Assembly: GCA_963797095.1 (NCBI GenBank)
Contig: CAWCNY010000001.1
Coordinates: 320,001-384,000 of the forward strand
Length of the DNA stretch: 64,000 nt
Direction: 5' to 3'
From: an uncultured Chloroflexia bacterium
GTDB lineage: Bacteria; Chloroflexota; Chloroflexia; QHBQ01; JADMIH01
Shown here piece after piece: positions 1 to 19,932 of the stretch. Positions within the stretch are counted from its first letter, which is position 1; each line of letters opens with the position of its first letter. A program made the translations under genes and the position numbers. The notes under the pieces were generated by a model that worked only from the letters and a program-made list of their open reading frames with translations, did not search any database and was not told where the DNA came from.

Positions 1-148
1 TGTCCACGGTAAGCTCCAGGTCGTCTATCTGAGACACCTGGATGCCGCGGTAGTACGGTATGCGAGCGCCCAGCTGGAAACCTGTCGCCTCGCCGTTCCG
101 CGTCACATTCTTGAAATCCTCACCGACGATTATGTATTTGTCGAACAC
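1..148 (-). CDS. C-glycoside deglycosidase beta subunit (DUF6379), 3' part outside window (beta-1)
   Basis: Manual translation from GTG at 148 behind a GAGGAGG RBS: MFDKYIIVGEDFKNVTRNGEATGFQLGARIPYYRGIQVSQIDDLELTVD..., the same motif set as the other beta paralogs; not in the ORF track because it is truncated. Confidence 0.85.
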   Translation of the reverse strand, partial: MFDKYIIVGEDFKNVTRNGEATGFQLGARIPYYRGIQVSQIDDLELTVD

Positions 149-180
149 GCGTGGCCCTCCTCTCGCCGCTTGCGAGCCTT

Positions 181-576
181 TCAGCCTACCAGTTGCAGCA
201 CCTTCTTGTCCTCGCCTGAGAAGCCCTCGGGCACATAGGTCATGAGTACGGTTTCTTTCATCTCGACCCTGTGCTCACCAGGTTCCAGTCCGCCCGGCTT
301 GCGCACCGTGACGGTGGCAACCTCACCGAACTCCCAGCGGTCCTCTATCTCGGTCTCCATCTCGTCGAGGGTGTAGGTGTTGCCGTGGACCGTGATGGTG
401 AGCAGGTCGCGGGGGACCTGCTCACCATCAATAGTCAGGTCAATTCCGCCGAAGAGGGACAGGAAGATCCCGCGGTAGTACGGCAGCCGGGCGCCAAGCT
501 GATAACCTACCGCCTTGCCGTCCTTCACCACGTTCTTGAATTCCTCGCCGACGATCATAAAGTTGTCGTGTATCAC
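181..576 (-). CDS. C-glycoside deglycosidase beta subunit (DUF6379; DgpB/CarC-like) (beta-2)
   Basis: 131 aa; GYQLGARLPYYRG...DGE...RWEFGE...KPGGLEPGEH motifs match the DgpB-type beta-sandwich subunit. Confidence 0.85.
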   Translation of the reverse strand: MIHDNFMIVGEEFKNVVKDGKAVGYQLGARLPYYRGIFLSLFGGIDLTIDGEQVPRDLLTITVHGNTYTLDEMETEIEDRWEFGEVATVTVRKPGGLEPGEHRVEMKETVLMTYVPEGFSGEDKKVLQLVG

Positions 577-579
577 GCT

Positions 580-1641
580 TCACTCCTTCGCTGCGTCACC
601 GGCACCATCCTGCCCGAGCAGGCGGCGCAGCATGACCTGGTGGCGGCGCACCTGCTCGACGCTGTCCACTTCGAAGGCATCCTCGATGTGGTACTGGCCC
701 TCGTACTCGCTGGCGATGTAGCCCTGGTAGCCACCCTCCTTGAGGACGGAGATGACCTGGTCGTAAGGGATGCTGTACTCAGTGTAGTCGGGGAGCATCT
801 CGTAGAACTTGCCATGGACGTGTACTATCCGGTGCATGTAATCGAGCATACGCCGGGGATCCGACCAAATGATGTAATAGAGGCTGAAGAGGGCGTTACT
901 CACATCGCTCGCCGTGCCACCCATCCTGAGGATGTTCTCCTCCAATTTGGCCTTATCGGGCTGCGTGCCGTTTTCCCTCGCTTCCACGATATAGCGGACT
1001 ATCTCGTCCTTCATGCCGTTGCGCTTCCAGCGCTCGGTCAGGATGCGCGGCAGGCGACGCACGAAGATGCCACAATCGGGTATGACTCCCAGGTAGGGGG
1101 AGCCGACCCGCTCCATCATCTCGAGCTGCCCCTGAATCAGGGGTGCGTCGAGGTGGCTGGGCGCGTGGATCTCAAGGCCGAGCTTGACGTTGTACTTCTC
1201 GGCGTTTTCAGCAGACCGCGCCATTACCTCGGGCGGCGTATCGACGATCACGCGGATGACCGAGCAGCCGAGGCGGTTGGCGAACTTGATGTCGCGCAGC
1301 AGCAACTCGACCATCTCGTCCCCCGTCATGAGCCGTCCCTTGTAGAGGTTCATGTCAAGGAACATGTCGTGGCAGACCGGGGTAACGCCGTACTTCTCCA
1401 GCCAGGCGTGCCACTCCTCGAAGACCGAGTCGGGCACCTTCGGGAAGCCACGTATCATCTGCTCTGTCACGATTTCCACGCCCGGAATGCCAAGTCGCCC
1501 GGTAGTGGCAATGCAATCCTCAAGCGACATCTGCCCCAGCATGTACTCCTGCTGGAAGCTGTACAGGCTCACGGCCCGCTTGATGTTGGCCGTCTTCGTC
1601 GAGCCGGTAGTGCCGGCTGCCTGAGCCGTATTGCTGCTCAT
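580..1641 (-). CDS. C-glycoside deglycosidase alpha subunit (sugar-phosphate isomerase/epimerase TIM barrel) (alpha-1)
   Basis: SLYSF, EIHAP, PDCG, HVHGKF, ASEYEG, QVRRHQ motifs as in DgpC/CarB. Confidence 0.85.
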   Translation of the reverse strand: MSSNTAQAAGTTGSTKTANIKRAVSLYSFQQEYMLGQMSLEDCIATTGRLGIPGVEIVTEQMIRGFPKVPDSVFEEWHAWLEKYGVTPVCHDMFLDMNLYKGRLMTGDEMVELLLRDIKFANRLGCSVIRVIVDTPPEVMARSAENAEKYNVKLGLEIHAPSHLDAPLIQGQLEMMERVGSPYLGVIPDCGIFVRRLPRILTERWKRNGMKDEIVRYIVEARENGTQPDKAKLEENILRMGGTASDVSNALFSLYYIIWSDPRRMLDYMHRIVHVHGKFYEMLPDYTEYSIPYDQVISVLKEGGYQGYIASEYEGQYHIEDAFEVDSVEQVRRHQVMLRRLLGQDGAGDAAKE

Positions 1642-2687
1642 CTGACCTTCACCTCTTCCCGAGTCTCAACTCCCGAATGCGGCACTTCGCCCAGCAGTCG
1701 CTTGAGCATAACCTGGTGGCGGCGCACCTGCTCCACACTGTCTACAGGGAAGGCATCCTGTATGTGGCGGTTGCCTTCATATTCGCTGGAGAGGTAGCCA
1801 TTGTAGCCGCCCTCTATGAGAACCGGGATGATCTCCTCGTAGGGGATGCTGTACTCTGTATAGTCTTCCAGCATCTCGTTGAATTTGGCGTGGAAATGGA
1901 AGATGTAGGGCATGAAATCGAGCATACGGTGTGGGTCCACATAGATGTTGTGGGTGCCCATGCGCATCATATTGACGTCGTCCTGGGTGGCGCCCATCCG
2001 GCGTATGTCTTCCTCCAACGTGTCAAGCCCTTCATGGCGGTTGTATTTATCTGTGATCACGTGAGCTATTTCCGGGCGCATGCCGTCGCGCACCCAGCGG
2101 TCGCTCACCACGCGTGGCAGGCGCTTGGTGTAGATGCCGAAGTCAATCACGAATCCCACGTGCTTGGAGCCTGTGCGCTGGAACATCTCAACCAGGCTCT
2201 TCGAGAATGCGTCGTCAAGATGGCTGGGTGCGTGGATCTCGTTTCCCAATCGCACGTTGTACTCCGCGGCGTAGGGCGCCGCCTTCTCCATGACTGCTGG
2301 CGACGTGTCGTGGATTACGCGTATCACTGAGCAGCCCAATTTGGCGGCGTTCTTGATGTCCCGGACCAGCACGGCGACACGCTCGTCCTCGGTCATCACG
2401 CGGCCAGGGTACTTGTTCCAGTCGATAAATTGGTCGAGGCAGACGGGTGTGCGCCCGTATTTCTGCATCCAGCCTTGCCACTGCTCGAAGAACAACTCGG
2501 GGACGTTGGGATAGTGGCGGATCATCTGGTCGCCGATGATCTCAATACCAGGTATGTCCAACTTAGCGCAAGTCGCGATGATCTCCTCCAGCGTCATTTT
2601 GCGGAGGAAGAACTCCTCCTGGAAGCTATAGAGGCTGACGCTGCGCTTAATGTTGTGCGCTTTGGCTGTAGTTGTGTTGCTCATCAT
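1638..2687 (-). CDS. C-glycoside deglycosidase alpha subunit (alpha-2)
   Basis: Same motifs (EIHAP, IDFG, HFHAKF, SSEYEG); start moved to MMSNTT at 2687 behind AAGGAG; stop overlaps the alpha-1 start (ATGA). Confidence 0.85.
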   Translation of the reverse strand: MMSNTTTAKAHNIKRSVSLYSFQEEFFLRKMTLEEIIATCAKLDIPGIEIIGDQMIRHYPNVPELFFEQWQGWMQKYGRTPVCLDQFIDWNKYPGRVMTEDERVAVLVRDIKNAAKLGCSVIRVIHDTSPAVMEKAAPYAAEYNVRLGNEIHAPSHLDDAFSKSLVEMFQRTGSKHVGFVIDFGIYTKRLPRVVSDRWVRDGMRPEIAHVITDKYNRHEGLDTLEEDIRRMGATQDDVNMMRMGTHNIYVDPHRMLDFMPYIFHFHAKFNEMLEDYTEYSIPYEEIIPVLIEGGYNGYLSSEYEGNRHIQDAFPVDSVEQVRRHQVMLKRLLGEVPHSGVETREEVKVR

Positions 2688-2788
2688 TCTCTCCTTGAAC
2701 TGCCATTGCTGAACCGGACAGCGATGGCTGCTGTGAATCTGTTCCAATGTATCCGGTATGCAGAGAGCCAGGGTCGCTGCCCTACCCA

Positions 2789-3181
2789 TCAGTTGTCGAT
2801 GGTGAGCTTCTTGGCGTCGCTCCCCTTGAAGCCGAAAGGCACATAGGAAATCTTCAATTGCTGCGACAGCTCAACCTCGTGTTCCCCCGGCGCAAGCCCG
2901 CCCGGCTTCTCCACTGTAAGGAGGCCCACCTCGCCGAACTCCCACCTGTCGCCGGTCTGGTCCTCCACCTCGGTCAGCCGGTAGGTGTTGCCGTGTAAGG
3001 TCACCGAGATCTTGTCGGGCGAGAAGTGCTCGCCGTCCACTGCAAGGTCGGTCGTGCCCACCAGGGAGAGTGTAATACCGCGGTAGTAGGGCAGCCGCTC
3101 GCCGACCTGGAAGCCGGCAACCTTGCCATCTTTCTCCACGTTCCTGAACTCTTCGCCAACGATAATATACTTATCGAACAT
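2789..3181 (-). CDS. C-glycoside deglycosidase beta subunit (beta-3)
   Basis: MFDKYIIVGEEF...RLPYYRG...RWEFGE...PGGLAPGEH; GGAGG RBS before ATG 3181. Confidence 0.85.
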   Translation of the reverse strand: MFDKYIIVGEEFRNVEKDGKVAGFQVGERLPYYRGITLSLVGTTDLAVDGEHFSPDKISVTLHGNTYRLTEVEDQTGDRWEFGEVGLLTVEKPGGLAPGEHEVELSQQLKISYVPFGFKGSDAKKLTIDN

Positions 3182-3226
3182 CTGTGTAACCTCCATCTAC
3201 ATCAGCCCAGCCGGTGAGCAACCTCC

Positions 3227-3345
3227 CTAGCTGTGCAGTGCTAAACGCTCCGTCGTTCCGCCCATCACAATGCCCCACGTGCGGTTGTCGATGCGCCGCG
3301 TTGCCTCGTGATCTACGAGGGTGCGGGCGCGGCCGCGGTGGAGAG
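3227..3345 (-). pseudogene. orphan 3' relic of a long-loop beta subunit gene (copy of the beta-5 C-terminus)
   Basis: 3248-3324 is a near-copy of 6171-6247; reads RTLVDHEATRRIDNRTWGIVMGGTTERLALHS* with no start of its own. Confidence 0.65.
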
Positions 3346-3348
3346 ATA

Positions 3349-3753
3349 TTAGCGCGCCAGCTCCAACACCTTGCGGTCGTGCGTACGGAAGCCATATGGC
3401 AGCGCATAGGTGATCATCAGCCGCTGCACCAACTCTACCTCGTGCGAGCCCGGTTTCAGCCCGCCCGGCTTCTCCACCGTCAGGATACCTACATCGCCGA
3501 ACTCCCAGCGATCGCGGCACTGGTCCTCGATCTCGGACAGCCTGAAGGTGTTACCGTGAAGGGTTAGAGTCACCTTGTCGGGCGAGAAGTGCTCGCCGTC
3601 CACCGACAGGTCGGCGGGGCGCAGCACAGAGAGGACCACACCTCGATAGTAAGCCAAGCGAGCGCCGATCTGGAAACCGGTAACCTCACCGTCCTGCTCG
3701 ATGTTCCCGAACTCTTCGCCCACTATCATGTATTTGTCGAGCATCTTGATCAT
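3349..3753 (-). CDS. C-glycoside deglycosidase beta subunit (beta-4)
   Basis: MLDKYMIVGEEF...RLAYYRG...RWEFGD...PGGLKPGSH. Confidence 0.85.
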   Translation of the reverse strand: MIKMLDKYMIVGEEFGNIEQDGEVTGFQIGARLAYYRGVVLSVLRPADLSVDGEHFSPDKVTLTLHGNTFRLSEIEDQCRDRWEFGDVGILTVEKPGGLKPGSHEVELVQRLMITYALPYGFRTHDRKVLELAR

Positions 3754-3765
3754 CTCCTCTCGCGG

Positions 3766-4803
3766 CTAAACGCCGACAGGCTCGGCGGCCGGTACTTCGC
3801 CCAACAACTTCTTGAGCATCGTCTGCTGGCGGCGCACCTGCTCGATGCTCTCGAACTCGATGTTGCGCTGGCCCTCGTACTCGCTCGACAAGTAGCCGTT
3901 ATAGCCGCCCTCGATAAGCACGGGCACTATCTCCTCATAGGGGATGCTGTACTCGGTCGTATCGTCGACCATCTCCCAGAACTTGGCGTGGATGTGCACT
4001 ACCCGCGGCATGATCTTCAGGAGGGTGCGCGGGTCGGTGTAGACCATGTGGGTCGTCATGAAAGCGGCACTCTGGTCCGCCGGGCCGCCGCCCATCTTCG
4101 CGATCTCTTCGGGCAGCTTGTCGATCGCGGCGAGGTCGTGGGTGTTGTAGACGGCGAAGATATGCTCCAACATCTCGGGCCGGGCGCCCTTGCTGATCCA
4201 CTGGTCGGTGATCACGCGAGGCAAGCGCTTCACGAACATACCCATGTCGGGAACGAAGCCGAGGTAGGGCGAGCCGAGGCGCTCCATATACTCCCACAGT
4301 TCCTGGGTGAAGGGGTGCTCTACGTGGAACGGAGCATGGATCTCCCAGCCCCATTTGACGCCGACCTTCTCCGCATATTCGGCGACCCTGGCCAACACGT
4401 TCAGGTCGGTCGGGTGAATGTCGCGCACGACAGAACAGCCGAGACGCTTGGCGAAGTCGAGGTCGCGCACGAACGCCTGGTACTGCTCGTCGGCCGTCAT
4501 GACGCGGCCCTTGTACATGTTCCAGTCGAGAAACGCGTCCTGGGCGACTGGCGTGCGGCCGTACTTCTCAATGGCCGCATGCCACATTTTGAACCACTCC
4601 TCGCCGGGGTCGGGGAAGCCGGGGGCCATCTGCTCGCCGATGATCTCGATACCTGGTATGTCGAGCTCCGCGCACTTGGCGATTATGTCTTCCAGCGTCA
4701 TCTCCCGCAGGAAGTACTCTTCCTGGAAGCTGTAGAAGCTAACGCTCCGCTTGATGTTGTGGCGCTTGGCGCTGTTGCCAGGCCCGTTTGTCGCCATTGT
4801 CAT
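3766..4803 (-). CDS. C-glycoside deglycosidase alpha subunit (alpha-3)
   Basis: SFYSFQEEY, WEIHAP, PDMG, HIHAKF, SSEYEG. Confidence 0.85.
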   Translation of the reverse strand: MTMATNGPGNSAKRHNIKRSVSFYSFQEEYFLREMTLEDIIAKCAELDIPGIEIIGEQMAPGFPDPGEEWFKMWHAAIEKYGRTPVAQDAFLDWNMYKGRVMTADEQYQAFVRDLDFAKRLGCSVVRDIHPTDLNVLARVAEYAEKVGVKWGWEIHAPFHVEHPFTQELWEYMERLGSPYLGFVPDMGMFVKRLPRVITDQWISKGARPEMLEHIFAVYNTHDLAAIDKLPEEIAKMGGGPADQSAAFMTTHMVYTDPRTLLKIMPRVVHIHAKFWEMVDDTTEYSIPYEEIVPVLIEGGYNGYLSSEYEGQRNIEFESIEQVRRQQTMLKKLLGEVPAAEPVGV

Positions 4804-4921
4804 TTGCTCACCTCCAAAAACTCAGGTTCGCCCGGTCCTCATCTGGGCCCGAAGACTCTCGACCTGCGGGGGCAGGCTCACGTAGTCAGGCTGGCGCGAC
4901 TTCAGGTGTCGTACCATGCTG

Positions 4922-4952
4922 AGTATTGCCGCCAATCCCGCGCGGCAATACT
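4922..4952. other. intra-operon stem-loop downstream of the oxidoreductase gene
   Basis: AGTATTGCCGC-N9-GCGGCAATACT, a perfect 11-bp stem; no U-tract on the minus strand, so more likely a stabiliser/processing hairpin than an intrinsic terminator. Confidence 0.55.
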
Positions 4953-4959
4953 AAGGAAC

Positions 4960-6144
4960 CTAGGGGCGGCTTGCTGGTACCGCCTGCAACTCGTCTATGT
5001 GCACTACGTCGCCCCTCTCCGAAGACTTATAGATGGCCTCAAGGATTAGAGTAACGGTGTAAGCTTGCTCGGGCTTGATAACCAGTTCACCGCCGTTGCG
5101 GACAGCGTTGTACCAGACTTCCTGCTCCCTGAACATACCAGGGTAGAACTCCGGCTGCTCGCCGCTGCCGATGAAGCTCCCACCGAGCGCATAGTTCTGG
5201 ATATACAGCTTGCCGTTGTTCTCGCCGTTCACCCGGACATTGAAGGTCCGATTCCGGTCGAAGTCGATGGTGAGGATGCCCGGCCCCGTCTCCGGGAACA
5301 TGTCTGCCCCGGCCTTGGTGCCGCACAGCACGACATATGCATCCTGCTGAGCTATGACTTGATTCAGAGCCCAGGACAATTCGACTATGACGGTAGCCCC
5401 GTTCTTGAACTTCACAAGCCCGAAGCCACTGTCCTCCACTTCGAACTTGTCCGGGTCCCATGGTCCCATGATGTTTGCCCCGCTGCCGATCTTGCCGAGC
5501 TTATTGAAGGTCGAGCCGAGCACAGTCTCGGGCTCGTAATTGTCCATCATCCAGAGCGTAAGATCCAGCGTGTGGGTGGCAAGGTCAATGAGAGAGCCAC
5601 CACCCTGCTTGGCTTTGTCGAGGAAGACCCCGTGGGTTGGCACTCCGCGCCGGCGGGTGCCCAGCGCCTTGCCAAGATATATCTCGCCCAGCTCGCCGTC
5701 TTCGACTACCTTCTTCAGGAACTGCGCGTTGGGGCGGTAGCGGTTCTGGTAGCCGATCGTGAGCAACCTGCCTGTCTCGCGGCTGGCGTCTAGCATGGCC
5801 CTGGCTTCCGCTGCGGTCTTGGCCATCGGCTTCTCGCACAGTACGTGCTTGCCCGCGCGAAGGGCTGCTATACTGATCTCGGCGTGTGAGCTATTGGGCG
5901 TGCAGACGTGCACTACCTCGATATCGTCGCGGGCGAGCAGGTTCGTGTAATCCCCGTACACGGCCGCACTCGAGGTGCCGTACTTCCTGGCCGCGGCCTG
6001 CGCCCGCTCGACGATGATGTCGCAGAAAGCGATAATCTCCACGTCGGGCAGCCGGGATATGCTGGGCATGTGCTTTTGATTGGCAATGCCACCGCACCCG
6101 ATGATGCCTACCCTGGTCTTGTCACTGCGACTACTGAGGTTCAT
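4960..6144 (-). CDS. Gfo/Idh/MocA family NAD-dependent oxidoreductase (candidate glycoside 3-dehydrogenase, DgpA-like role)
   Basis: VGIIGCGGIA Rossmann motif, GKHVLCEKP, GGGSLIDLATHTLD; start at ATG 6144 overlapping the beta-5 stop. Confidence 0.85.
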   Translation of the reverse strand: MNLSSRSDKTRVGIIGCGGIANQKHMPSISRLPDVEIIAFCDIIVERAQAAARKYGTSSAAVYGDYTNLLARDDIEVVHVCTPNSSHAEISIAALRAGKHVLCEKPMAKTAAEARAMLDASRETGRLLTIGYQNRYRPNAQFLKKVVEDGELGEIYLGKALGTRRRGVPTHGVFLDKAKQGGGSLIDLATHTLDLTLWMMDNYEPETVLGSTFNKLGKIGSGANIMGPWDPDKFEVEDSGFGLVKFKNGATVIVELSWALNQVIAQQDAYVVLCGTKAGADMFPETGPGILTIDFDRNRTFNVRVNGENNGKLYIQNYALGGSFIGSGEQPEFYPGMFREQEVWYNAVRNGGELVIKPEQAYTVTLILEAIYKSSERGDVVHIDELQAVPASRP

Positions 6145-6605
6145 GCTCTCACTCCTTGCAATTCTATGTTCTCCGTCGTGCCGCCCATCACAATGCCCCA
6201 CGTGCGGTTATCGATGCGGGGAGTTGCCTCGTGATCCACAAGAGTGCTGTAGCGCATGTAGTAAATATCCAGACTGAACCGCACTGTTACCTCGTGCTCC
6301 CCCGGCGCGAGACCCCCCGGCTTGGCGACAGTCAGGACGCCAAACTTGCCGTACTCCCAGCGGTTGTCAGGATCATTCTCGAATTGCGCCAGCGGGTAGG
6401 TCTTCTCGCCCAGCGTCACCGAAATCTTGTCGGGCGAGAAGCTCTCGCCGTCCACCACAAGCTCGATCCCCTTGAGCATCGAGAGATAAAAGCCCCGGTA
6501 GTATGGCACGCGCACATTGATTTGGAACCCCGTGATGCGCCCGTCCTGCTCCACGTTCTTGAAGCTCTCCTTGGCGATCACGTATTTGTCGGATATGGTC
6601 TTCAT
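6141..6605 (-). CDS. C-glycoside deglycosidase beta subunit with ~20-aa C-terminal loop insertion (beta-5)
   Basis: RVPYYRG, RWEYG, PGGLAPGEH, then an extra STLVDHEATPRIDNRTWGIVM segment. Confidence 0.85.
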   Translation of the reverse strand: MKTISDKYVIAKESFKNVEQDGRITGFQINVRVPYYRGFYLSMLKGIELVVDGESFSPDKISVTLGEKTYPLAQFENDPDNRWEYGKFGVLTVAKPGGLAPGEHEVTVRFSLDIYYMRYSTLVDHEATPRIDNRTWGIVMGGTTENIELQGVRA

Positions 6606-7687
6606 CTCCCTGCCTCGCTTCCCACCAGAGCCGGGCCTGTTGTGCCTGCCCTGCTGCCCGTGTCGTCTGCTTGCGTTTCGCCCAACAGATGCCTGAGCAT
6701 GACCTGATGGCGGCGCACCTGCTCTACGCTATCTGATTCTGTGTCGTCCACGAGCCAGCCGTTGCCTTCATACTCGCTCGAGATGTAGCCGTTGTATCCT
6801 CCCTCGATCAGCACCGGCACAACTTCTTCGTAGGGGATGGCCTCCTCCCGGTACCCGCTAACAGGGTCCTCAACCATATCGTTGAACTTGCCGTGGACGT
6901 GGAGTATGTGCGGCATGTACTCTGCCAGCCGCTGTGGGTCGGCGAAGATGAAGCGGGCCGCGCGGTTTGCCATGGCGATCTCGTCCTGTGTGCCCCCCAG
7001 GCGCTCGACCTCTGCGGGTATCTGTCCTATGCTTTCGTGGCTGTTGTACGCTTTGGTAATGAAGCCGGCGATGTGCGGGCGCATACCGTTGGCCAGCCAG
7101 TAGCTGAGGAAGATTCGAGGCATATGCTTGGTGAAAATCCCCATGTCGACTGTGAAGCCGAGGTAGGGGGAGCCAACCTCGCGCATCATGGTCACGTGCT
7201 TCTGCATCCATACATCATCCAGCTGGTGCGGCGCATGGACCTCGAGTGCCTGCTTGACATTGTATTTCTCGGCATACGGAGCCACACGCGCCAGGATGGA
7301 GGGCGGGGTGAGGTGCAACACCCGGATAACGGTGCAGCCAAGGCGATTCGCGAACACGATGTCTCGGATCGCCAACTCGACCATCTCGTCCTCGGTCATG
7401 AGGCGGCCGCTGTACCTGTTGATGTCGAGGAACATATCGTGGGCGACGGGAGTGCGGCCGTACTTGGCAAGCCAGCCTTTCCACTGCGCCAGCCACTCAT
7501 CGCCGGGATCGGGGAAGTTGGGCACCATCTGCTCCCCGATCACCTCAATTCCGGGGATACCCAGATCGGCTGCAGTCTTGATGCAATCTTCCAGGCTCAT
7601 CTTGCCTATGAAGTAGTCGTGCCGCCAGCTATAGAACGTAACACAACGCTTGATGTCGTGCGGCACGGTCGTGTCTGTCTCATCCAT
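6602..7687 (-). CDS. C-glycoside deglycosidase alpha subunit (alpha-4)
   Basis: TFYSW, LEVHAP, VDMG, HVHGKF, SSEYEG. Confidence 0.85.
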   Translation of the reverse strand: MDETDTTVPHDIKRCVTFYSWRHDYFIGKMSLEDCIKTAADLGIPGIEVIGEQMVPNFPDPGDEWLAQWKGWLAKYGRTPVAHDMFLDINRYSGRLMTEDEMVELAIRDIVFANRLGCTVIRVLHLTPPSILARVAPYAEKYNVKQALEVHAPHQLDDVWMQKHVTMMREVGSPYLGFTVDMGIFTKHMPRIFLSYWLANGMRPHIAGFITKAYNSHESIGQIPAEVERLGGTQDEIAMANRAARFIFADPQRLAEYMPHILHVHGKFNDMVEDPVSGYREEAIPYEEVVPVLIEGGYNGYISSEYEGNGWLVDDTESDSVEQVRRHQVMLRHLLGETQADDTGSRAGTTGPALVGSEAGR

Positions 7688-7699
7688 TCCCAGCTCCTT

Positions 7700-8779
7700 T
7701 CACGCCGACGCGGCTAGATACTTGTTAACCATGGCGTGCCACTTCTGCACTTCTTGCATGGCGGCATTCGGATCCGCGGTGAATCTGCTGCCCTCCCACT
7801 CGGCAGAGATAGAGCCGCTGTAGCCGCTCTCCTTGAGCAGCTTGATAATTTCGCCGTAAGGGATAGAAGGCTCAACTCCGCTCTCGTCTATGTGGTAGAA
7901 CTTGCCGTGGATGTGGCGGCTGTAAGGGAGCACCTCGCGCCAGGTCTCTACCGGCATGTGCCCGAACATCGTAATTACCGAGTTGAGCGAGCCGACGAGC
8001 GATGCCGGCGCCTGGTAGCGCTGGGCTGCGCCGGCAAGGGCGGCAAACTTCTGCATGGACGGCTCATCGCTGTGCCAGATCTCTCTCGTCGTTTCGATCA
8101 GCGGCTCGGGCGCGCCCATCTGCCGCAGCATCGGCCAATATCCATCGGGCGGCTTGGTCATGGAGCAGCTGAGGTCGGGCACGAAGCCAAGGTAAGGCGA
8201 CCCGATGCGGTCGTAAAGCTCCCGCAACTCGATAACTTCAGGATGTGAGGGGGAGAGGGGCGAATGCAGTTCGCAGGCCACCTGCACCTCCGCCCGCTCG
8301 GCGGCCGGCACCAGCCTCTGTATGGCTTCGGGTCCGGCGAGCGCCTGAATGCGCAGCACCGGAAAGCCCAGCTTACGGGCCGCCTCGATCTGCGGCTCTA
8401 TGTAGGCTACCGTTTCCTCCACCGTCATTAGCCGGCCCGGGAAGCGGCCCAGGTCTACGTTGCCGGACAGCGAGGTGGGCCGCAGACCCAGGCGCGTCGT
8501 AACTTCCCTGAACAGCTCGGCGAACTCATCAGTGATATCGGGGTAGTCGCGTATGCTCTGGAAGCCCACGACCTCGACGCCGGGCCCCACTCCCAGCTCT
8601 GCTACCTTCTCCATCAACTGCTCAAGAGTGAAGCGGCGTGTCTGCCACCGGCTGGTGAAGCTGTAGAGGGTAGTACCCAGGACGATATTGCCGGTGTTTG
8701 CGCCGCCTGCGCCGCCTGCGCCGCCTGCGCCGCCTGCGCCGTCCGTCCCGCTTGTGCTAGATCTATTGTAAGTGTTCAT
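7700..8779 (-). CDS. C-glycoside deglycosidase alpha subunit, divergent CarB/DgpC-like clade (alpha-5)
   Basis: LGTTLYSFT, GNVDLGRFPGR, CELHSP, PDLS, HIHGKF, SAEWEG; N-terminal (GGA)n from a 9-bp repeat. Confidence 0.85.
   Translation of the reverse strand: MNTYNRSSTSGTDGAGGAGGAGGAGGANTGNIVLGTTLYSFTSRWQTRRFTLEQLMEKVAELGVGPGVEVVGFQSIRDYPDITDEFAELFREVTTRLGLRPTSLSGNVDLGRFPGRLMTVEETVAYIEPQIEAARKLGFPVLRIQALAGPEAIQRLVPAAERAEVQVACELHSPLSPSHPEVIELRELYDRIGSPYLGFVPDLSCSMTKPPDGYWPMLRQMGAPEPLIETTREIWHSDEPSMQKFAALAGAAQRYQAPASLVGSLNSVITMFGHMPVETWREVLPYSRHIHGKFYHIDESGVEPSIPYGEIIKLLKESGYSGSISAEWEGSRFTADPNAAMQEVQKWHAMVNKYLAASA
8701..8740. repeat. 9-bp tandem repeat (CGCCGCCTG x4) in the alpha-5 N-terminus
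   Basis: Seen directly; encodes GAGGAGGAGGAGG. Confidence 0.9.
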
Positions 8780-8789
8780 CGCTTGGCCC

Positions 8790-9182
8790 TCACGCGGCTA
8801 CCTGTGTTGTGGCATACTGCCAAGTTGGGGTCAAGAACTTGCCCGGGCCCACCAGGATGTAGGGAGCACGCACCGCCAGTTGTAGCTCTAACCTGTGGCT
8901 CTCGCCCGCCTTCACCCGGCCCGGGTCGCGCACGCCCAGCAGAGCGGAGTCGAGCACGAACCAGAACTCATCGGCATGTGCGGCCAGCTCCTCCAGCCGG
9001 TATCGGTGCCCGTTGATGCCGAAGCGAATAGCGTCGGGCGGCACAGGCCGCCCGTCCAGGCTCAACTCGACCCTTTCGACGCACGACAGAGGCAGTGACC
9101 TGTACCAGTTGAGGCGGGCCTCCAACTGGTAGCCTTCTTGTGTAGCCCGCAGGCTGTTGTCCTCTATTATGTTCAGAGGCAT
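8790..9182 (-). CDS. C-glycoside deglycosidase beta subunit, 'YRSLPLSC' clade (beta-6)
   Basis: RLNWYRSLPLSCVERVELSLDG...FWFVLD...RAPYI. Confidence 0.85.
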   Translation of the reverse strand: MPLNIIEDNSLRATQEGYQLEARLNWYRSLPLSCVERVELSLDGRPVPPDAIRFGINGHRYRLEELAAHADEFWFVLDSALLGVRDPGRVKAGESHRLELQLAVRAPYILVGPGKFLTPTWQYATTQVAA

Positions 9183-9198
9183 GTGAGCACCACCCTCC

Positions 9199-10266
9199 CT
9201 ACTTGGTCTCGCCGAGCAACTGCTTGAACATCTCTTGCTCGCGGCGCACCTGCTCCACGCTGTCTACCTGGTAAATGTCCTGGATGTGGCGGTTGCCTTC
9301 GTACTCGCTGGACAGGTAGCCATTGTAGCCGCCCTCGATCAGCACGGGCACCACCTCGTCGTAGGCAATGCTGTACTCGGTGTAGTCGGGCAGCATCTCG
9401 TAGAACTTGGCGTGGATATGCACGAAGTGCGGCATGAACTCGAGCAAGCGCTGCGGGTTCTCGTAAATCTGGAACTTGGCCATGCGGGCCATCTCGCGGT
9501 CGTAGTCGTTCGCGCCCATTTTCTCCACCTCGTCAGGTAGGTTGTCGAGGTTGTCGTGGTTGTTGAACTTCTCGAGGACGTAGTTCACGATATTCTGGTG
9601 CGCGCCGTTCCTGACGAGGCGGTCGCTCGTCACGCGAGGGAAGCGCCTGGTGAAGATGCCCATGTCCGGGGTGAAGCCGAGATATGGAGAGCCGAGCCGA
9701 TCCATGAGCTTGATTCGATCTTTGAACCACTCTTCCTCGAAGTGGTGCGGCGCGTGGATCTCGATGCCCATCTTGACATCGTATTTCTCGGCGAATGGCA
9801 CCGCTCGCTCCAACACGGGCAGCTCGGTGTTGTGGATGACTCGGATGACTTTGCAGCCGAGGCGGTTGGCGAAGCGCAGGTCGCGCACCACCGAGTCAAC
9901 CATCTCGTCCTCGGTCATTTTGCGGCCCTTGTAGATGTTCCAGTCGAGGAACATGTCGTGGCATACGGGTGTACGGCCATACTTGCGCATCCACTCATGC
10001 CACTGCTCGAAGAAGGCCTCGCCCGGCTCGGGGAAGCCAGGCACCATCTGCTCGCCGATGATCTCGATACCTGGTATGTCGAGCTTTTCGCAGGTGGCGA
10101 TAATGTCCTCCAGGCTCATTTTGCGCAGGAAGTACTCTTCCTGGAAGCTATACAGGCTCACGCCGCGCTTGATGGTGGGGGTCTTGGCGGTGCTTGCACC
10201 GGTGCCGGCGCCAGATACACTTGGGCTACTCATCATCTTCTCCTTCGGCTCCATCAGAGCCTCCAT
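9199..10266 (-). CDS. C-glycoside deglycosidase alpha subunit (alpha-6)
   Basis: GVSLYSFQEEY, IEIHAP, PDMG, HIHAKF, SSEYEG; true start may be the downstream MMSS. Confidence 0.85.
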   Translation of the reverse strand: MEALMEPKEKMMSSPSVSGAGTGASTAKTPTIKRGVSLYSFQEEYFLRKMSLEDIIATCEKLDIPGIEIIGEQMVPGFPEPGEAFFEQWHEWMRKYGRTPVCHDMFLDWNIYKGRKMTEDEMVDSVVRDLRFANRLGCKVIRVIHNTELPVLERAVPFAEKYDVKMGIEIHAPHHFEEEWFKDRIKLMDRLGSPYLGFTPDMGIFTRRFPRVTSDRLVRNGAHQNIVNYVLEKFNNHDNLDNLPDEVEKMGANDYDREMARMAKFQIYENPQRLLEFMPHFVHIHAKFYEMLPDYTEYSIAYDEVVPVLIEGGYNGYLSSEYEGNRHIQDIYQVDSVEQVRREQEMFKQLLGETK

Positions 10267-10269
10267 TTA

Positions 10270-10662
10270 TCAGTGGACTAATTCCAGAACTTTGTGATCG
10301 TGACCTCTGAAGCCTGCAGGCACATACGATATCTTCAGGTGCTGTTCCACATCTACCTCGTGCCGGCCCGGCTTGAGCCCACCCGGCTTGTTCACGGTCA
10401 CGATACCGACCTCACCGAACTCCCAGCGGTCCACGTCCTGGTCTTCCATCTCGGCGAGTTTGTAGGTGTTCCCGTGCAGGGTGACCGTCAACCCCTCCGG
10501 GGCGATGCTCTCGCCATCCACACTAAGTTGGGGAGGATCGACCAGGGATATCACGATGCCACGATAATATGGCAAGCGCAGTCCGACTTGGAACCCCGTG
10601 ACCTCACCGTCCTTCTCCACGTTCCTGAACTCCTCACCCACGATCATGTATTTGTCAAACAT
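10270..10662 (-). CDS. C-glycoside deglycosidase beta subunit (beta-7)
   Basis: MFDKYMIVGEEF...RLPYYRG...RWEFGE; ATG 10662 behind AAGGAG. Confidence 0.85.
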   Translation of the reverse strand: MFDKYMIVGEEFRNVEKDGEVTGFQVGLRLPYYRGIVISLVDPPQLSVDGESIAPEGLTVTLHGNTYKLAEMEDQDVDRWEFGEVGIVTVNKPGGLKPGRHEVDVEQHLKISYVPAGFRGHDHKVLELVH

Positions 10663-10690
10663 AGCGTGTCTCCTTCTCCCGACTAGACCC

Positions 10691-11743
10691 TTAGCGCCCA
10701 GCAGAAACGGCCGACGTCTCGCCAAGCAGCCGTTTGAACATCACGTGTTGGCGGCGCACCTGCTCTACGCTGTCTACGGGGAAAGCATCCTGGATATGGC
10801 GGTTGCCCTCGTACTCGCTCGACAGATAGCCGCCGTAGCCGCCCTCGATCAGCACGGGGATGATCTCGTCATAGGGGATGCTGTACTCTGTGTAGTCGGG
10901 CAGCATTTCATTGAACTTGGCGTGAATGTGGACCACGTGCGGCATGATCGGCAGGAGGCGGCGCGGGTCGACGTAGATCATGGCTCGGCTCGTATAGGAG
11001 GCCGCCCACTTGTCAACAGGCCCACCGCCCATCTTCTCAACATCTTCCGGCAGGTGCTCCTGTCCTTCATGGCTGTTGTAGACCTCGACGATGTGATCGA
11101 CGATGTCTTGGCGAGCTCCGTCGCGCACCCACCGCTCGCTGACTACCCGTGGCATACGCTTGGTGAAAATGCCCATGTCGGGAGTGAAGCCCAGGTAAGG
11201 AGAGCCAAGCCGCTCCATTAGCTCCAACAGCTCCTGCATTGCGGGATTGTCGGGGTGGTTGGGCGCGTGTATCTCCACGCCTATCTTGACGTCAAGCTCC
11301 TCGGCGTAGGGCACCGAGCGCGCCAGCACGTTCAGGCTGGCCGTGTGGATCCCGCGGATGACTTTGCAGCCGAGGTGGTTGGCGAAGCGCAAGTCGCGCA
11401 CTACCGATTGCACCTGCTCATCCTCGGTCATGGTGCGGCCCTTGTGCTTGTTCCAGTCGAGGAACATGTCGTGGCACACCGGAGTGCGGCCGTACTTGCG
11501 CATCCACTCGTGCCAGTTCTGGAAAAATGCCTCACCAGGCTCGGGGAAGCCAGGGGCCATCTGCTCGCCGATGATCTCGATACCTGGTATATCGAGCTTT
11601 TCGCAGGTGGCGATAATGTCCTCCAGGCTCATTTTGCGCAGGAAATACTCTTCCTGGAAGCTGTACAGGCTCGCCCCTCGCTTTATGTTGTTGGCGGGGA
11701 CTTGCTTGGTGCTGTTTGCCTCGGTTGTGCTTGCGTTGCTCAC
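10691..11743 (-). CDS. C-glycoside deglycosidase alpha subunit (alpha-7)
   Basis: GASLYSF, VEIHAP, PDMG, HIHAKF, SSEYEG. Confidence 0.85.
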   Translation of the reverse strand: MSNASTTEANSTKQVPANNIKRGASLYSFQEEYFLRKMSLEDIIATCEKLDIPGIEIIGEQMAPGFPEPGEAFFQNWHEWMRKYGRTPVCHDMFLDWNKHKGRTMTEDEQVQSVVRDLRFANHLGCKVIRGIHTASLNVLARSVPYAEELDVKIGVEIHAPNHPDNPAMQELLELMERLGSPYLGFTPDMGIFTKRMPRVVSERWVRDGARQDIVDHIVEVYNSHEGQEHLPEDVEKMGGGPVDKWAASYTSRAMIYVDPRRLLPIMPHVVHIHAKFNEMLPDYTEYSIPYDEIIPVLIEGGYGGYLSSEYEGNRHIQDAFPVDSVEQVRRQHVMFKRLLGETSAVSAGR

Positions 11744-11785
11744 GTTCGGTCACCTCCATGTGCATGAAAGCCGCAAATCTGATAC

Positions 11786-12181
11786 TCAGGCGGCTAGATT
11801 GAGGTCTTTATGGTCGTTGCCGCGGAAGCCCCGACCCGGTATGTAACTAATGTCCAGGTGGATGAACAGGTCGAACTTGTGCTCGCCAGGGGCAAGGCCA
11901 CCCGGTTTGTTCATCCTCAGGATGCCCACTTCGCCGAACTCCCACCGGAAGTCGGGCATCGACTTGAGGGCTGTGAGAGGGTACGTCTGGCCATGCAAGG
12001 TTACGCTGATCTTTTCGGGTGGGATGTGCTCCCCGTCAACAGCCAGGTCTATTGTCTTGATGAGCGACACGCAAATGCCGCGGTAGTACGGAAGGCGAGC
12101 GCCGACCTGGAAGCCGGTAATCTCGCCGTCCTTGCTGACGTTGCGGAATTCCTCGCCCACGATCATGTATCTGTCAAACAT
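11786..12181 (-). CDS. C-glycoside deglycosidase beta subunit (beta-8)
   Basis: MFDRYMIVGEEF...RLPYYRG...RWEFGE...PGGLAPGEH. Confidence 0.85.
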   Translation of the reverse strand: MFDRYMIVGEEFRNVSKDGEITGFQVGARLPYYRGICVSLIKTIDLAVDGEHIPPEKISVTLHGQTYPLTALKSMPDFRWEFGEVGILRMNKPGGLAPGEHKFDLFIHLDISYIPGRGFRGNDHKDLNLAA

Positions 12182-12203
12182 CTCACTGAACTCCTTATTT
12201 GGG

Positions 12204-13259
12204 CTACCGGGCGGCAGTTTCCGTAGCCGGAACCTCCCCGATCAGCTGCTTGAACATTGCATGTTGCCGGCGAACCTGCTCGGTGCTGTCCACCGGGAAG
12301 GCATCCTGTATATGGCGGTTGCCTTCGTACTCGCTCGACAGGTGGCCATCGAAACCCGCCTCGATCAGCACGGGCACAACCTCGTCATAGGCGATGCTGT
12401 ATTCGGTGTAATCGGGCAGCATCTCGTAGAACTTGGCGTGGATGTGGAAGATGTAGTCCTTAATCTTCAGCAGGTCGCGAGGTTTCTCGAAGATGCCCAG
12501 GCGCATGCCATACCCGAGCTGGAAAGCCTCCTGCTCCGTGGCTCCGATCTTCGTTGACGCCTCTTGCAGATCGTCCATGTAGAGGCCGCTGTTGTATAGC
12601 TCTACGAACCTATCGGCAATCTCCTGCCGCAAGCCGTCGCGCACCCAGCGCTCGCTGACCACGCGCGGAAAGCGGCGCGTGAAGATGCCCATATCGGGCA
12701 GGAAGCCGTAGTGGCGCGTGCCCGTGCGCTGGATCACCTCCAGGTGCAACTCGATCCATTCGCCGTTCAGGCGGCGGGGTGAGTGGATCTCCACCGCGAG
12801 CTTGATATCGCGCTCCTCGGCGTAGGGCAGAGCCAACTCGATCCACTTCGGCGCGATACCCGAACCGACGCGGATCACCTTGCAGCCAAGCTTGTGAGCG
12901 AACTCGATGTCGCGCACCAGGTCGTGACGAGCCTCCTCGTCAGTCATCATCCGTCCCTCGTACTTGTTCCAGTCGAGGAAGAGGTCGTGGCACACCGGAG
13001 TGCGGCCGTACTTGCGCATCCACTCGTGCCAGTTCTGGAAAAATGCCTCACCAGGCTCGGGGAAGCCAGGGGCCATCTGCTCGCCGATGATCTCGATACC
13101 TGGTATGTCGAGCTTTTCGCAGGTGGCGATAATGTCCTCCAGGCCCATTTTGCGCAGGAAATACTCTTCCTGGAAGCTGTACAGGCTCGCCCCTCGCTTT
13201 ATGTTTTGGGCGGGGACCTTTGCCGGTCCTGGTGTGCCTTGTGTATCAGCGTTAGCCAT
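12204..13259 (-). CDS. C-glycoside deglycosidase alpha subunit (alpha-8)
   Basis: GASLYSF, VEIHSP, PDMG, HIHAKF, SSEYEG; start MANADT at 13259 behind AAGGAGG. Confidence 0.85.
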   Translation of the reverse strand: MANADTQGTPGPAKVPAQNIKRGASLYSFQEEYFLRKMGLEDIIATCEKLDIPGIEIIGEQMAPGFPEPGEAFFQNWHEWMRKYGRTPVCHDLFLDWNKYEGRMMTDEEARHDLVRDIEFAHKLGCKVIRVGSGIAPKWIELALPYAEERDIKLAVEIHSPRRLNGEWIELHLEVIQRTGTRHYGFLPDMGIFTRRFPRVVSERWVRDGLRQEIADRFVELYNSGLYMDDLQEASTKIGATEQEAFQLGYGMRLGIFEKPRDLLKIKDYIFHIHAKFYEMLPDYTEYSIAYDEVVPVLIEAGFDGHLSSEYEGNRHIQDAFPVDSTEQVRRQHAMFKQLIGEVPATETAAR

Positions 13260-13297
13260 ATTCTCATGCCTCCTTCCGAGGGCCCGAACAGGCGGGT

Positions 13298-14275
13298 CTA
13301 TGTCGCTGCCTTGATGCATCCCTCGATGTATCGTTTGATCATAGCCTGGTGCTCCTGCACCATTGCCAGCGAATCGGGCGCGTCACCCTCAAACTCGCTG
13401 GACATCCACCCTTTGTAGCCGCCCGCTAACAATTCATGCACCACTTCCTCGTAGCGCAGGTTCGGCTCGGTGCCGTTTTCCATGCTGAAGAACTTGCCGT
13501 GCACATGCATAATGTAGGACATGATCGTGCGTAGGGCCGCCGGCTCCGAGTGGCCAAAGCTGCCCCAGAAGCTCTCGACAGCACTGACCTGGCTTTTTTG
13601 CAAGCCGTGATGCTCCAATTCGGCCAGAGCCTCCGGCAGTGGGGTCTCTGCGTTCCACAGCTCCACCGCCCTCGTTACGATGCTCTCTGCCACCCCGCGG
13701 GCACGGGCCCGCTCAGTGGCGAACTGCGGCACCGAGCGGGCGAAGATACCCATGTCCGGGATAAGACCGAGATGGTCGGAGGAAATCCGCTCTACCTGCC
13801 TGATCAGCTCCTGCGTTTGCGGAGCTTCGATCATCAAGGGCACGTGCAATTCGTAGCCCATCTTCAAACCGAGCTTCTCAGCGTAGGGCAGCAGCCGCTC
13901 GATCACCGGGTAAACGAAGTACTGGAGTCGCACCACCCGGAAGCCGAGCTTTGCCGCGCCAATTAACTGCGGAACAGTGTATTCGACCAGCTCATCGGGC
14001 GTGAGGTCTCGGCCGGGCAGCATGAAGGGGTCAGCGTAGCTGCCATACGAAGTGGGCGTCAGGCCGTTACGCTCAATAGAGCTTTTGAAGATGCGCTCGA
14101 ACTCGGACGTAACGTAGGGGAAGCCCCGGTGATGAGCCGGCCCCACGATTTCCACCCCGCCGCCAAGCCCGGCGGCTTTCTGCATCATGTCCTCGAAGGA
14201 CCACTGGAATGAGCAATACTCGTTCGTGAAGCTATGGAACGATATGCCCACTTTGAAGGGCTCTGTTATGGTCAC
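13298..14275 (-). CDS. C-glycoside deglycosidase alpha subunit, divergent clade (alpha-9)
   Basis: GISFHSFT, RLQ, YELHVP, PDMG, HVHGKF, SSEFEG; GTG start overlaps the beta-9 stop. Confidence 0.8.
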   Translation of the reverse strand: MTITEPFKVGISFHSFTNEYCSFQWSFEDMMQKAAGLGGGVEIVGPAHHRGFPYVTSEFERIFKSSIERNGLTPTSYGSYADPFMLPGRDLTPDELVEYTVPQLIGAAKLGFRVVRLQYFVYPVIERLLPYAEKLGLKMGYELHVPLMIEAPQTQELIRQVERISSDHLGLIPDMGIFARSVPQFATERARARGVAESIVTRAVELWNAETPLPEALAELEHHGLQKSQVSAVESFWGSFGHSEPAALRTIMSYIMHVHGKFFSMENGTEPNLRYEEVVHELLAGGYKGWMSSEFEGDAPDSLAMVQEHQAMIKRYIEGCIKAAT

Positions 14276-14757
14276 GATATGTCCTCCGGCCCTCCACTCT
14301 CAAGACGCAGACGTTTGCTGGAGGAGTTGTAAAAGGAAAATCTCCCCGCGGTCGCGTAAGGCTCTACAGTGACCAGGGTGCCCTGGACGTCATGGACGCC
14401 GGGCTCGAGCGGTGCATGCGGCACAAAGAGGTCGGCGTAATCGAGGATGAACCACCAGACCTTACTCAGGCCGCGAAGCTCATCGAGTTTGTGGCCGTAG
14501 TTATTGAGGATGAGGACGATGTTTTGGGGGTCTATTTGCTCACCGTCAATGCTCAGCTCTATTCCTTCGATGCACGAGAGCGGAAGAGACCTGTAACTGG
14601 TCAGCCTGACCTTGAGCATGACGCCGGGCTGGCTATTGTGTACTGAGTTACGCAAGCCCTGGTCGGCAATAAAGCCCCGATCTTTAGGATGCCGCGCAAT
14701 TGCTATCGGGGACGAGGCTGCGGTCCCCGCCGGCAATGCTCTCTCCTGGCAATCCAT
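14272..14757 (-). CDS. C-glycoside deglycosidase beta subunit, 'YRSLPLSC' clade (beta-9), first gene of the array
   Basis: RLTSYRSLPLSCIEGIELSIDG...WWFILD...EPY; ATG 14757 behind AAGGAG. Confidence 0.8.
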   Translation of the reverse strand: MDCQERALPAGTAASSPIAIARHPKDRGFIADQGLRNSVHNSQPGVMLKVRLTSYRSLPLSCIEGIELSIDGEQIDPQNIVLILNNYGHKLDELRGLSKVWWFILDYADLFVPHAPLEPGVHDVQGTLVTVEPYATAGRFSFYNSSSKRLRLESGGPEDIS

Positions 14758-18044: not shown

Positions 18045-18314
18045 CTGCTTACCTCCACTAGCTCCAGACACATCTGCCGTTTCAGTCTCCAGAGAGGGTC
18101 TGGTGGCTAAAGGTAGATACACAATAATGTCCGGGTGCCCAACGGGTGCGCAACCCATACTCTTCAGTAAGAAGGAGCACAACTAGGGCAAATTAGGCGA
18201 AGCGCTGGCCAAATATGGCTGCTCAGGGCAAAGAACCGGTGCCAGCATACGCAATAGAGGACCTTAGCGCTGCGCTCCTCCCGCCGACGTGGACGTGGCA
18301 ACAACTGTAGGCTA

Positions 18315-19771: not shown

Positions 19772-19932
19772 CGCCCCGAATGGCTCGCTCCGGCCTACGA
19801 TCTGCGGCGCCAGATGGGAGTTGTTACAAGGGGTCGGTGACCTTCTGATAGACTAGCGCTGGCTATCCAGAGGGGCAATTCGTGCTATCAGCGCTGCGAA
19901 AAACCTGCAGGTTGATCCTAAGGAGGAAAGCA

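Follow-up and report, generated by a model that had tools for sequence, protein, structure and literature searches.

A 36-kb block of fourteen predicted C-glycoside deglycosidase pairs in the genome of a soil Chloroflexota bacterium

The stretch of DNA analyzed here (the window, 64,000 nucleotides) covers positions 320,001 to 384,000 of contig CAWCNY010000001.1 (C1 below; window position 1 is C1:320001) in the 6.02-Mb, eight-contig genome of an uncultured Chloroflexia bacterium (GCA_963797095.1). At its left edge lies one end of a 36-kb block, C1:299153-335042, which contains all alpha-type and beta-type genes of the genome, exactly 14 of each; their products are by homology members of the heteromeric C-glycoside deglycosidase family (CGD/CGE; DgpBC, DfgAB, CarBC). 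Judging from its gene content, the block is probably a catabolic super-locus for glycosides that are beyond ordinary glycosidases, above all the aryl C-glycosides of plant polyphenols. In a search of about 1,050 genomes, no other set was as large or as dense as these 14 copies. The family and its chemistry were already known; the scale, the density, and the phylum are new.

Within the window, the listing of open reading frames (ORFs) gives an unbroken run of 19 co-oriented minus-strand genes at positions 1-14940, comprising nine alphas, nine betas, and one DgpA-type oxidoreductase (Gfo), in the transcription order b9-a9-a8-b8-a7-b7-a6-b6-a5-a4-b5-Gfo-a3-b4-b3-a2-a1-b2-b1. All nine alpha ORFs (325-383 aa) score above the cut-off of the Pfam family PF01261 (AP_endonuc_2, a xylose-isomerase-like TIM barrel; 35.1-63.7 bits vs 31.1), and all eight complete beta ORFs (130-222 aa) above that of PF19906 (CGDB, ‘C-glycoside deglycosidase beta subunit’, formerly DUF6379; 65-133.7 bits vs 27.6). 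The ninth beta, b1, is cut by the window start and shows its first 48 residues in frame (FDKYIIVGEDF...). Most junctions are tight, ranging from overlaps to spacers of 42 nt, and most of those that do not overlap by four bases have gaps of 3-42 nt. Four-base ATGA overlaps are found at a2/a1, a4/b5, and b9/a9, and also at b5/Gfo if the internal ATG at 6144 is used. In a promoter and terminator scan, no intrinsic-terminator-like site was seen on the minus strand within this putative operon; the scan’s promoter and terminator counts were not above those of shuffled sequence (5 vs 6.3 and 7 vs 12.4).

Listed by position, with PF19906 scores for betas and PF01261 scores for alphas, the run starts with the class I beta b1, of which only the N-terminal part falls in the window (1..148, from the frame translation; whole gene C1:319756-320148, 124.8 bits), followed by the class I genes b2 (181..576, 133.7 bits), a1 (580..1641, 63.7 bits, with the catalytic motifs), a2 (1638..2789, 50.7 bits, again with the motifs; start probably ATG 2687 or 2684), b3 (2789..3196, 126.3 bits), b4 (3349..3753, 121.6 bits), and a3 (3766..4803, 59.4 bits). 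The oxidoreductase gene (4960..6144) has an ORF open to 6201, its ATG at 6144 overlapping the stop codon of b5 (ATGA). Beyond it are b5, a class I beta with a C-terminal tail (6141..6605, 122.8 bits), and the class I alpha a4 (6602..7687, 61.4 bits), then the class II alpha a5 (7700..8779, 49 bits) and the class II beta b6 (8790..9182, 81 bits; 50-58% identical to the two upstream class II betas). Class I resumes with a6 (9199..10266, 52.2 bits), b7 (10270..10725, 128.2 bits; start probably ATG 10662), a7 (10691..11743, 48.2 bits), b8 (11786..12181, 119.7 bits), and a8 (12204..13319, 49.5 bits). The run closes with a divergent alpha, a9 (13298..14275, 35.1 bits, with the motifs; 29-35% identical to the other alphas), and a divergent beta, b9 (14272..14757), whose ORF is open to 14940, whose start is probably ATG 14757, and which reaches 65 bits on residues 88-195 of the long ORF. 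The a5 ORF also carries a low-complexity Gly/Ala run near its N-terminus (window about 8690-8740, GAGGAGGAGGAGGA) that its paralogs are without.

Solved structures place both gene types more closely. The Protein Data Bank (PDB) sequence search was run with two alphas, a7 and a5, each of which matches all eight solved CGD alpha sequences: a7 aligns end to end with 8qvc_A (377.4 bits) and a5 comes nearest to AgCGD2 (7dnm_A, 216.8 bits). The other alphas were placed by alignment and hidden Markov models (HMMs), with PF01261 above cut-off for all 14. On the beta side, b7 matches 8qvc_B (96.7 bits), DfgB, DgpB, and AgCarC2. NCBIfam holds no model for either CGD subunit, and none of the five subunits tested matched it. 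In AgCGD2, Mn2+ is bound by E147, D179, H269, K271, and E305, and H149 and E307 form the catalytic pair (Mori et al. 2021, PMC8563793). In a5 each of the seven is matched by an identical residue, as counted on its alignment with 7dnm_A; they are kept in 13 of the 14 alpha ORFs as called, and the fourteenth (C1:311153-311953) has them in a shifted frame. When aligned, all nine window alphas show the motifs E-x-H, D-x-G/S, H-x-H-x-K-F, and E-[YFW]-E-G. Among the betas, one tyrosine (Y33 of b7) is invariant in 14 of 14. By offset of the b7-DgpB match (8-114 vs 14-120, both 107 residues) it would correspond to residue 39 of the DgpB chain, chain numbering being assumed equal to the paper’s, and Tyr39 of the PuCGE beta subunit is reported to be needed for C-C cleavage and hardly for C-O cleavage (Bitter et al. 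2023, PMC10628242).

That distinction matters for another reading of the locus, in which most pairs would be general beta-eliminases of 3-keto-O-glycosides (or oligosaccharides), an oxidative alternative to glycoside hydrolases that is indifferent to the aglycone, with C-C cleavage confined to a minority. We consider this unlikely. PuCGE is indeed described as a promiscuous C-/O-glycoside eliminase and O-glycosides far outnumber C-glycosides in plants (PMC10628242), the Gfo enzymes of the locus match the NCBIfam models ‘glycoside 3-dehydrogenase’ and ‘levoglucosan dehydrogenase’ (below cut-off), and a GH3 glycosidase is encoded nearby, downstream of the locus (window 46388-49093). However, the dedicated O-glycoside enzyme AtOGE works without a beta subunit according to the same study, whereas here alphas and betas stand at 14:14 and the betas are CGDB proteins. 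Moreover, the tyrosine presumably tied specifically to C-C cleavage does not vary, and the closest relatives of known structure are without exception chains of C-glycoside enzymes.

The presumed C-glycoside locus extends 20 kb past the window edge. A genome-wide profile scan returned 14 CGDB matches, all above cut-off (66.9-133.5 bits) and all within C1:300265-334679, and the count of 14 alphas and 14 betas was reached both with Pfam on 30 upstream ORFs and with our own HMMs on the six-frame translation of the genome; ten of the betas lie within 17.7 kb. An earlier note on the window had described 19 co-oriented genes in the order given above, continuing past the edge, with AP_endonuc_2 alphas that are homologs of the CGD alphas and keep the four motifs, and with DUF6379 betas; all of this was borne out, for the betas by HMM matches in 8 of 8 complete window copies and 14 of 14 in the genome. 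Its ‘at least 9+9’ is present as well but understates a genome that holds 14+14. The ‘one shared oxidoreductase’ of that note is wrong, since the block contains six Gfo/Idh/MocA genes, including three DgpA-type paralogs that share 67-74% identity (the window copy, C1:303246-304397, and C1:312543-313832).

The note had nonetheless taken the window oxidoreductase for a Gfo-type 3-oxidation enzyme, and homology agrees: it matches DgpA 7xr9_A at 373.9 bits (E 8.5e-111) over residues 8-377, with an N-terminal Rossmann and a C-terminal alpha/beta domain, and reaches 377.2 bits with DgpA1 9m3d and 108.5 bits with PF01408 (GFO_IDH_MocA). The three other Gfo genes fall outside the DgpA type (44-120 bits), and the solved chains nearest to them are 6a3f and 3q2i/8tdi. 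Besides these, the block has a glucokinase (above the TIGR00749 cut-off, 242 bits vs 225), an aldo-keto reductase, an F420-type luciferase-like oxidoreductase, and a separate TIM barrel (X314, C1:314808-315818). Its regulators number three, two of the LacI family and one of the LuxR type with NB-ARC and TPR parts, and a five-gene Opp/Dpp-type ATP-binding cassette (ABC) importer belongs to the locus as well.

From these genes a pathway can be proposed, each step of which follows from homology. The Opp-type ABC importer would take up the glycoside, and a cytoplasmic DgpA-type Gfo/Idh/MocA enzyme, of which there are three paralogs, would oxidize the sugar at C3. One of the 14 alpha/beta Mn2+-type lyases would then act, the E-x-H histidine removing the C2 proton and the C-C bond being cut by beta-elimination, with C-O cleavage as a possible side activity. 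The predicted products are the aglycone and 2-hydroxy-3-keto-glucal. The latter would be hydrated by an IolE-like TIM barrel (perhaps X314, which matches the ‘2-hydroxy-3-keto-glucal hydratase’ 8ro4 weakly, E 1.4e-7), reduced by the other Gfo enzymes or the aldo-keto reductase, and phosphorylated by the glucokinase. The aglycones may be consumed via ring-cleavage genes just upstream (C1:289827-298355), where Pfam finds an extradiol-dioxygenase-type glyoxalase, a flavin adenine dinucleotide (FAD) monooxygenase, a cyclase, an SDR, an SMP-30-type lactonase, and a fumarylacetoacetase-family hydrolase. In a second Chloroflexota genome (G445), these kinds of genes likewise form one cluster, made up of a TIM barrel, a sugar kinase, DgpA and a further Gfo, one pair each of class I and class II, and an SBP_bac_5 transporter, an arrangement that supports a conserved pathway.

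Run in reverse, the same enzymes could attach 2-hydroxy-3-keto-glucal to polyphenols in vivo, which would make the locus biosynthetic (C-glycosylation). A 3-keto-C-glycoside lyase is reported to catalyze such a 1,4-addition in vitro (PMC13273386), but the surroundings here, with an importer, LacI regulators, a glucokinase, and ring-cleavage genes, are catabolic, and neither a glycosyltransferase nor polyketide or flavonoid biosynthetic genes were seen in the ORFs scanned; we regard a biosynthetic role as extremely improbable.

The catabolic assignment, with aryl C-glycosides as principal substrates, has points against it too. PuCGE also cleaves a 3-keto-O-glucoside, and C-glycosides thus need not be the main substrate of every pair, some of which may serve O-glycosides; C-glycosides are, furthermore, scarce relative to O-glycosides in nature, which makes 14 dedicated C-C lyases hard to rationalize (PMC10628242). 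The hydratase label of X314 comes from a weak match, its score with the NCBIfam IolE-like model lying well below cut-off (48.9 vs 290 bits), and the upstream aromatic-catabolism genes are linked to the locus by adjacency only. Finally, one alpha is frameshifted and the dN/dS values are rough, both of which are taken up below.

The 14 pairs fall into one eight-member clade, one three-member clade, and three singletons. Class I consists of eight alphas that are 43-70% identical and eight betas that are 39-67% identical, mostly with the alpha gene first; class II, which we read as running beta-then-alpha, consists of three pairs (47-58% identical); and the three singleton pairs, a9/b9 among them, complete the set. 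Because class II genes run beta-then-alpha, b6 probably goes with a5, just downstream of it, and not with a6. Thirteen pairs of neighbors can be drawn with alpha and beta side by side; a6 is then left with no class I beta to itself, and b1 with no alpha next to it. Mirror-tree analysis of how a6, a2, b1, and b3 pair, over 40,320 assignments, gave r 0.48 (rank 2,728) for the adjacency mapping and r 0.71 (rank 136) for the alternative a2-b1/a6-b3, and the best assignment is not adjacency-based. The alpha tree was built from 79 sequences (IQ-TREE quick, LG+G4, SH-aLRT support only), excluding the frameshifted alpha, the duplicate loci L017-L020 and L023, and frames below 200 bits or 280 aa. In it, a3, a6, a7, and a8 form a clade of own-genome copies only (SH-aLRT 94), which points to local duplication; a2, a9, and the copies of class II are grouped with sequences of other Chloroflexota or of an actinobacterial metagenome-assembled genome.

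At 39-70% identity the paralogs are old, and they are maintained under purifying selection: in 14 paralog comparisons the ratio of nonsynonymous to synonymous divergence (dN/dS) is 0.13-0.36, values that are rough because dS is partly saturated (0.75-2.3). An array that is largely redundant or decaying, be it a duplication burst without functional differentiation or an assembly artifact of a repeated pair, is accordingly very improbable in our view. Several observations might still be read that way. A single frameshift interrupts the alpha at C1:311153-311953, whose motifs HVHGKF and EYEG carry on in the next frame and which would be either a pseudogene or an assembly error; looked at more widely (C1:310957-311953, adjoining the beta at C1:311968-312492), the break falls near C1:311.2 kb between halves that otherwise look intact, with no long homopolymer at the break. 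A 98-nt relic copy of the b5/Gfo junction (6157-6254), 83% identical and found by the repeat search, lies at 3234..3331 in the b4-b3 spacer, such as duplication of a beta-Gfo unit with later loss of the Gfo might leave. Across the two direct repeat copies, a single low-depth contig from a soil metagenome connects 6220 with 3298 and may be a strain variant or an assembly chimera. Lastly, a7 and a8 share a near-identical 285-nt tract. Against all this, within-class identities of 39-70% are too low for assembly collapse or inflation, selection is purifying, the catalytic residues are intact in all copies, and several clades have their own orthologs in other Chloroflexota.

Misassembly and a collapsed repeat were also considered directly and rejected, as the within-class paralogs are that divergent and the contig spans 592 kb. 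The only near-identical DNA in the array is the single stretch of 285 nt, at the 5' end of a8 (12933-13217) and in a7 (11417-11701), as found by the repeat search. There the two genes are 95-100% identical, third codon positions included, and the remainder is near saturation, dS being 0.18 in the tract and 1.09 elsewhere. Such a pattern is that of a gene-conversion tract and indicates ongoing recombination in the array. Independent read support was sought and not obtained: four soil-metagenome runs from two studies contain only 7-12% of the sampled words, and mapped on window 1-16000 they gave contigs 150-500 nt long and 2-6 deep, none of them bridging genes. The data sets listed as containing the sequence include none of RNA.

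In a presumably catabolic locus of apparently intact paralogs, the question is what distinguishes the pairs, and here the distribution of divergence along the alphas is informative. Up to the metal Asp, the eight class I alphas are on average 58.6% identical; the figure drops to 37.7% in a middle segment and rises to 70.6% beyond it. The middle segment comprises the roughly 80 residues between the metal Asp and H-x-H, a length kept in all alphas. A four-helix lid covers the active site of PuCGD and AgCGD2 and is absent from EuCGD. When a7 is compared with the lid-less DfgA (7bvs_A), the match splits in two, the first stretch ending at residue 195, just past the metal Asp. The AgCGD2 cavity residues 241-249 also fall in the middle segment (PMC8563793). 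From the break in the DfgA alignment and the position of these cavity residues, the variable segment most likely represents the lid domain, which closes over the substrate. With the strongest divergence in this presumed lid, the 14 pairs most likely differ in substrate; the earlier note’s library of lyases for many aglycones or sugars was an inference, and the divergence of the lid segment fits it.

The locus may even work as a mix-and-match library in which class I alphas and betas assemble beyond the eight cognate combinations. This idea draws on an active site at the alpha/beta interface, on alpha-alpha and beta-beta neighbors, on an unpartnered alpha and beta, and on the gene-conversion segments. 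We hold free assembly to be quite unlikely; if true, the array would offer many more specificities than genes, and recombination among tandem copies would keep yielding new lids and interfaces.

Turning to distribution, genome counts refer to PF19906 matches over cut-off per genome. In the same genus the family was found in 0 of 25 genomes (one 24-bit match), or 0 of 22 without the unpublished G016, G021, and G022. The order to which the organism belongs gave 2 of 40 genomes including this one, with 14 copies and 1 copy, and a sample of the phylum 1 of 400 other genomes, with a single copy (31.5 bits). All ten genomes reached via related loci have the family (11, 5, 5, 4, 4, 4, 3, 3, 2, and 1 copies), as do 8 of 201 in the order of one of the genomes examined, G441 (11, 8, 7, 6, 3, 3, 2, and 1 copies), and 2 of 400 others in a sample of the phylum of G448, labeled as an actinobacterium (5 copies, 4 of them over cut-off, and 1 copy). 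The next largest sets, with 11, 8, and 7 copies, are all in another Chloroflexota order. G441 has 11 pairs over 45 kb, at most 6 per 20 kb. Two further scans, made with peptide patterns from seven class I betas and therefore seeing class I relatives only, found one beta in 21, two in 8, and three in 4 of 33 species loci of about 20 kb, and a maximum of four betas in 47 metagenome loci, many of them short.

The array is accordingly the extreme of a recurring Chloroflexota trait and not a singular event. The phylum sample drawn around G441, whose NCBI label is Chloroflexota, gave the same three weak hits at identical contig coordinates as the sample around this genome, and the earlier note’s guess of a probable Chloroflexota member was right. 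The exceptional size it ascribed to the array stands insofar as no larger set occurred in about 1,050 genomes, and has to be qualified by the sets of 6-11 pairs in the other Chloroflexota order and by a published case: Catenibacillus decagia, the largest printed set that we found, is reported to have six dgpBC clusters, DfgAB homologs, and 11 DgpA homologs (Microb Genom 2024, PMC11170127). A literature search returned nothing for ‘Chloroflexi’ with ‘DgpB’, the few records with ‘C-glycoside’ looked unrelated by title and abstract, and none of the papers found linked the phylum to this chemistry; a search by PDB codes gave nothing relevant either.

As to origin, the simplest reading, leaving donor and timing aside, is gain by this species followed by local duplication. 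DNA of congeners matches the left flank only to about C1:289830, and the next 15 kb show only short Rossmann-motif stretches. A dispersed repeat of about 175 nt (C1:289651-289826; L015 4651-4826), with many copies in the genome and in congeners, lies exactly where this left-side similarity stops. A simple insertion between conserved flanks was considered and not shown: congeners do have counterparts of the LuxR and ABC transporter genes, 65-76% identical, but on contigs other than those matching the left flank. Composition gives a weak case for horizontal transfer, as the island is only mildly atypical (59.9% GC vs 57.9% for the genome, about the 95th percentile of 45-kb windows, with a tetranucleotide distance in the top 6%) and the fourteen paralogs themselves bias the measure.

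Compared with known systems, the eight class I pairs have their nearest solved relative in the C-glucosyl deglycosidase 8QVC/8QVD/8UMC, which has two subunits and the same catalytic motifs, and which comes from Deinococcus aerius. The 8QVC entry is one alpha/beta pair, whereas here there are eight class I paralogs, 43-70% identical, that diverge mostly in the lid segment. Soil actinobacterial CGD systems use the FAD oxidase CarA; the oxidases here are, unlike it, homologs of the NAD-type DgpA. Among solved enzymes, the three class II pairs are nearest to one from such an actinobacterium, AgCGD2 (CarB2/CarC2) of Arthrobacter globiformis (7DNM/7DNN; PMC8563793).

DgpA/DgpB/DgpC of strain PUE (7XR9, 7BVR/7EXZ/7XRF) and DfgA/DfgB of Eubacterium cellulosolvens (7BVS/7EXB) share the proposed two-step logic, in which oxidation to the 3-oxo-glycoside by a Gfo/Idh/MocA enzyme precedes cleavage by an alpha/beta Mn2+ lyase, here predicted from the genes. 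Their alphas are less similar to a7 (162-171 bits). These gut Firmicutes have one pair per operon, whereas the soil Chloroflexota locus has 14 pairs and three DgpA paralogs. Closer in scale are C. decagia and C. scindens, reported to have, as here, several divergent CGD pairs and several DgpA homologs per genome, a multiplicity of dgpBC that their authors read as breadth of substrate range (PMC11170127). The six dgpBC clusters and 11 DgpA homologs of C. decagia compare here with 14 pairs and six genes of the Gfo type, gathered within 36 kb in a different phylum. The GlycDH/AtOGE/AtHYD/Gfo operon of Agrobacterium tumefaciens shares the proposed downstream logic, the elimination product being hydrated to 3-keto-glucose and reduced to glucose; its AtOGE is described as a single-subunit, O-glycoside-specific enzyme and is unrelated in sequence to the CGD alphas (Bitter et al. 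2023, PMC10628242).

The neighboring genes were assigned with Pfam. Directly upstream of the array, on the same strand, is the gene for the LuxR-family regulator with NB-ARC/AAA and TPR parts (15012..18182, minus), and divergent from it that for a LacI-family regulator (18470..19609, plus). Between the two, back-to-back sigma-70-like sites at window 18315-18367 were the sole standout of the promoter scan: TTGACA-17-TATAAT on the minus strand (18367-18339, 12/12), ahead of the LuxR gene, and TTGACA-17-TATTAT on the plus strand (11/12). The Opp/Dpp-type importer follows (19882..26078, plus) with an SBP_bac_5 binding protein, two permeases, and two ATPases, probably for glycoside uptake; the same transporter type adjoins the CGD cluster of G445. 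Right after it, a 689-aa ORF (window 26198-28267) fuses an MFS transporter with a cytidylate-kinase-like domain (PF13189), which is unusual. Three luciferase-like oxidoreductases are encoded in and around the locus (window 28863-30149 and 34043-35041, and C1:308478-309431), the last of them inside the CGD block and above the cut-off of the F420-dependent family TIGR03621; they may possibly take part in aglycone reduction. Downstream of the locus, ahead of the GH3 glycosidase, are an rve_3 integrase of an insertion sequence element (window 41793-42791) and a 935-aa SLH-anchored beta-propeller surface protein with DUF7948 and SBBP (window 43245-46052).

Ordinary glycosidases do not cope with C-glycosides (puerarin, vitexin, orientin, mangiferin, and carminic acid are examples), whose turnover in soil is poorly mapped. 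Here, 14 divergent, apparently intact predicted C-C lyases stand together with three matching oxidases and sugar-salvage genes in one 36-kb block. They would make a compact natural panel for asking how lid and beta-subunit sequence set substrate range (C6 vs C8, aglycone class, sugar), and a possible source of biocatalysts for C-glycoside cleavage or synthesis. The locus does not reveal a new mechanism; it suggests that a few soil Chloroflexota specialize in plant polyphenol glycosides.

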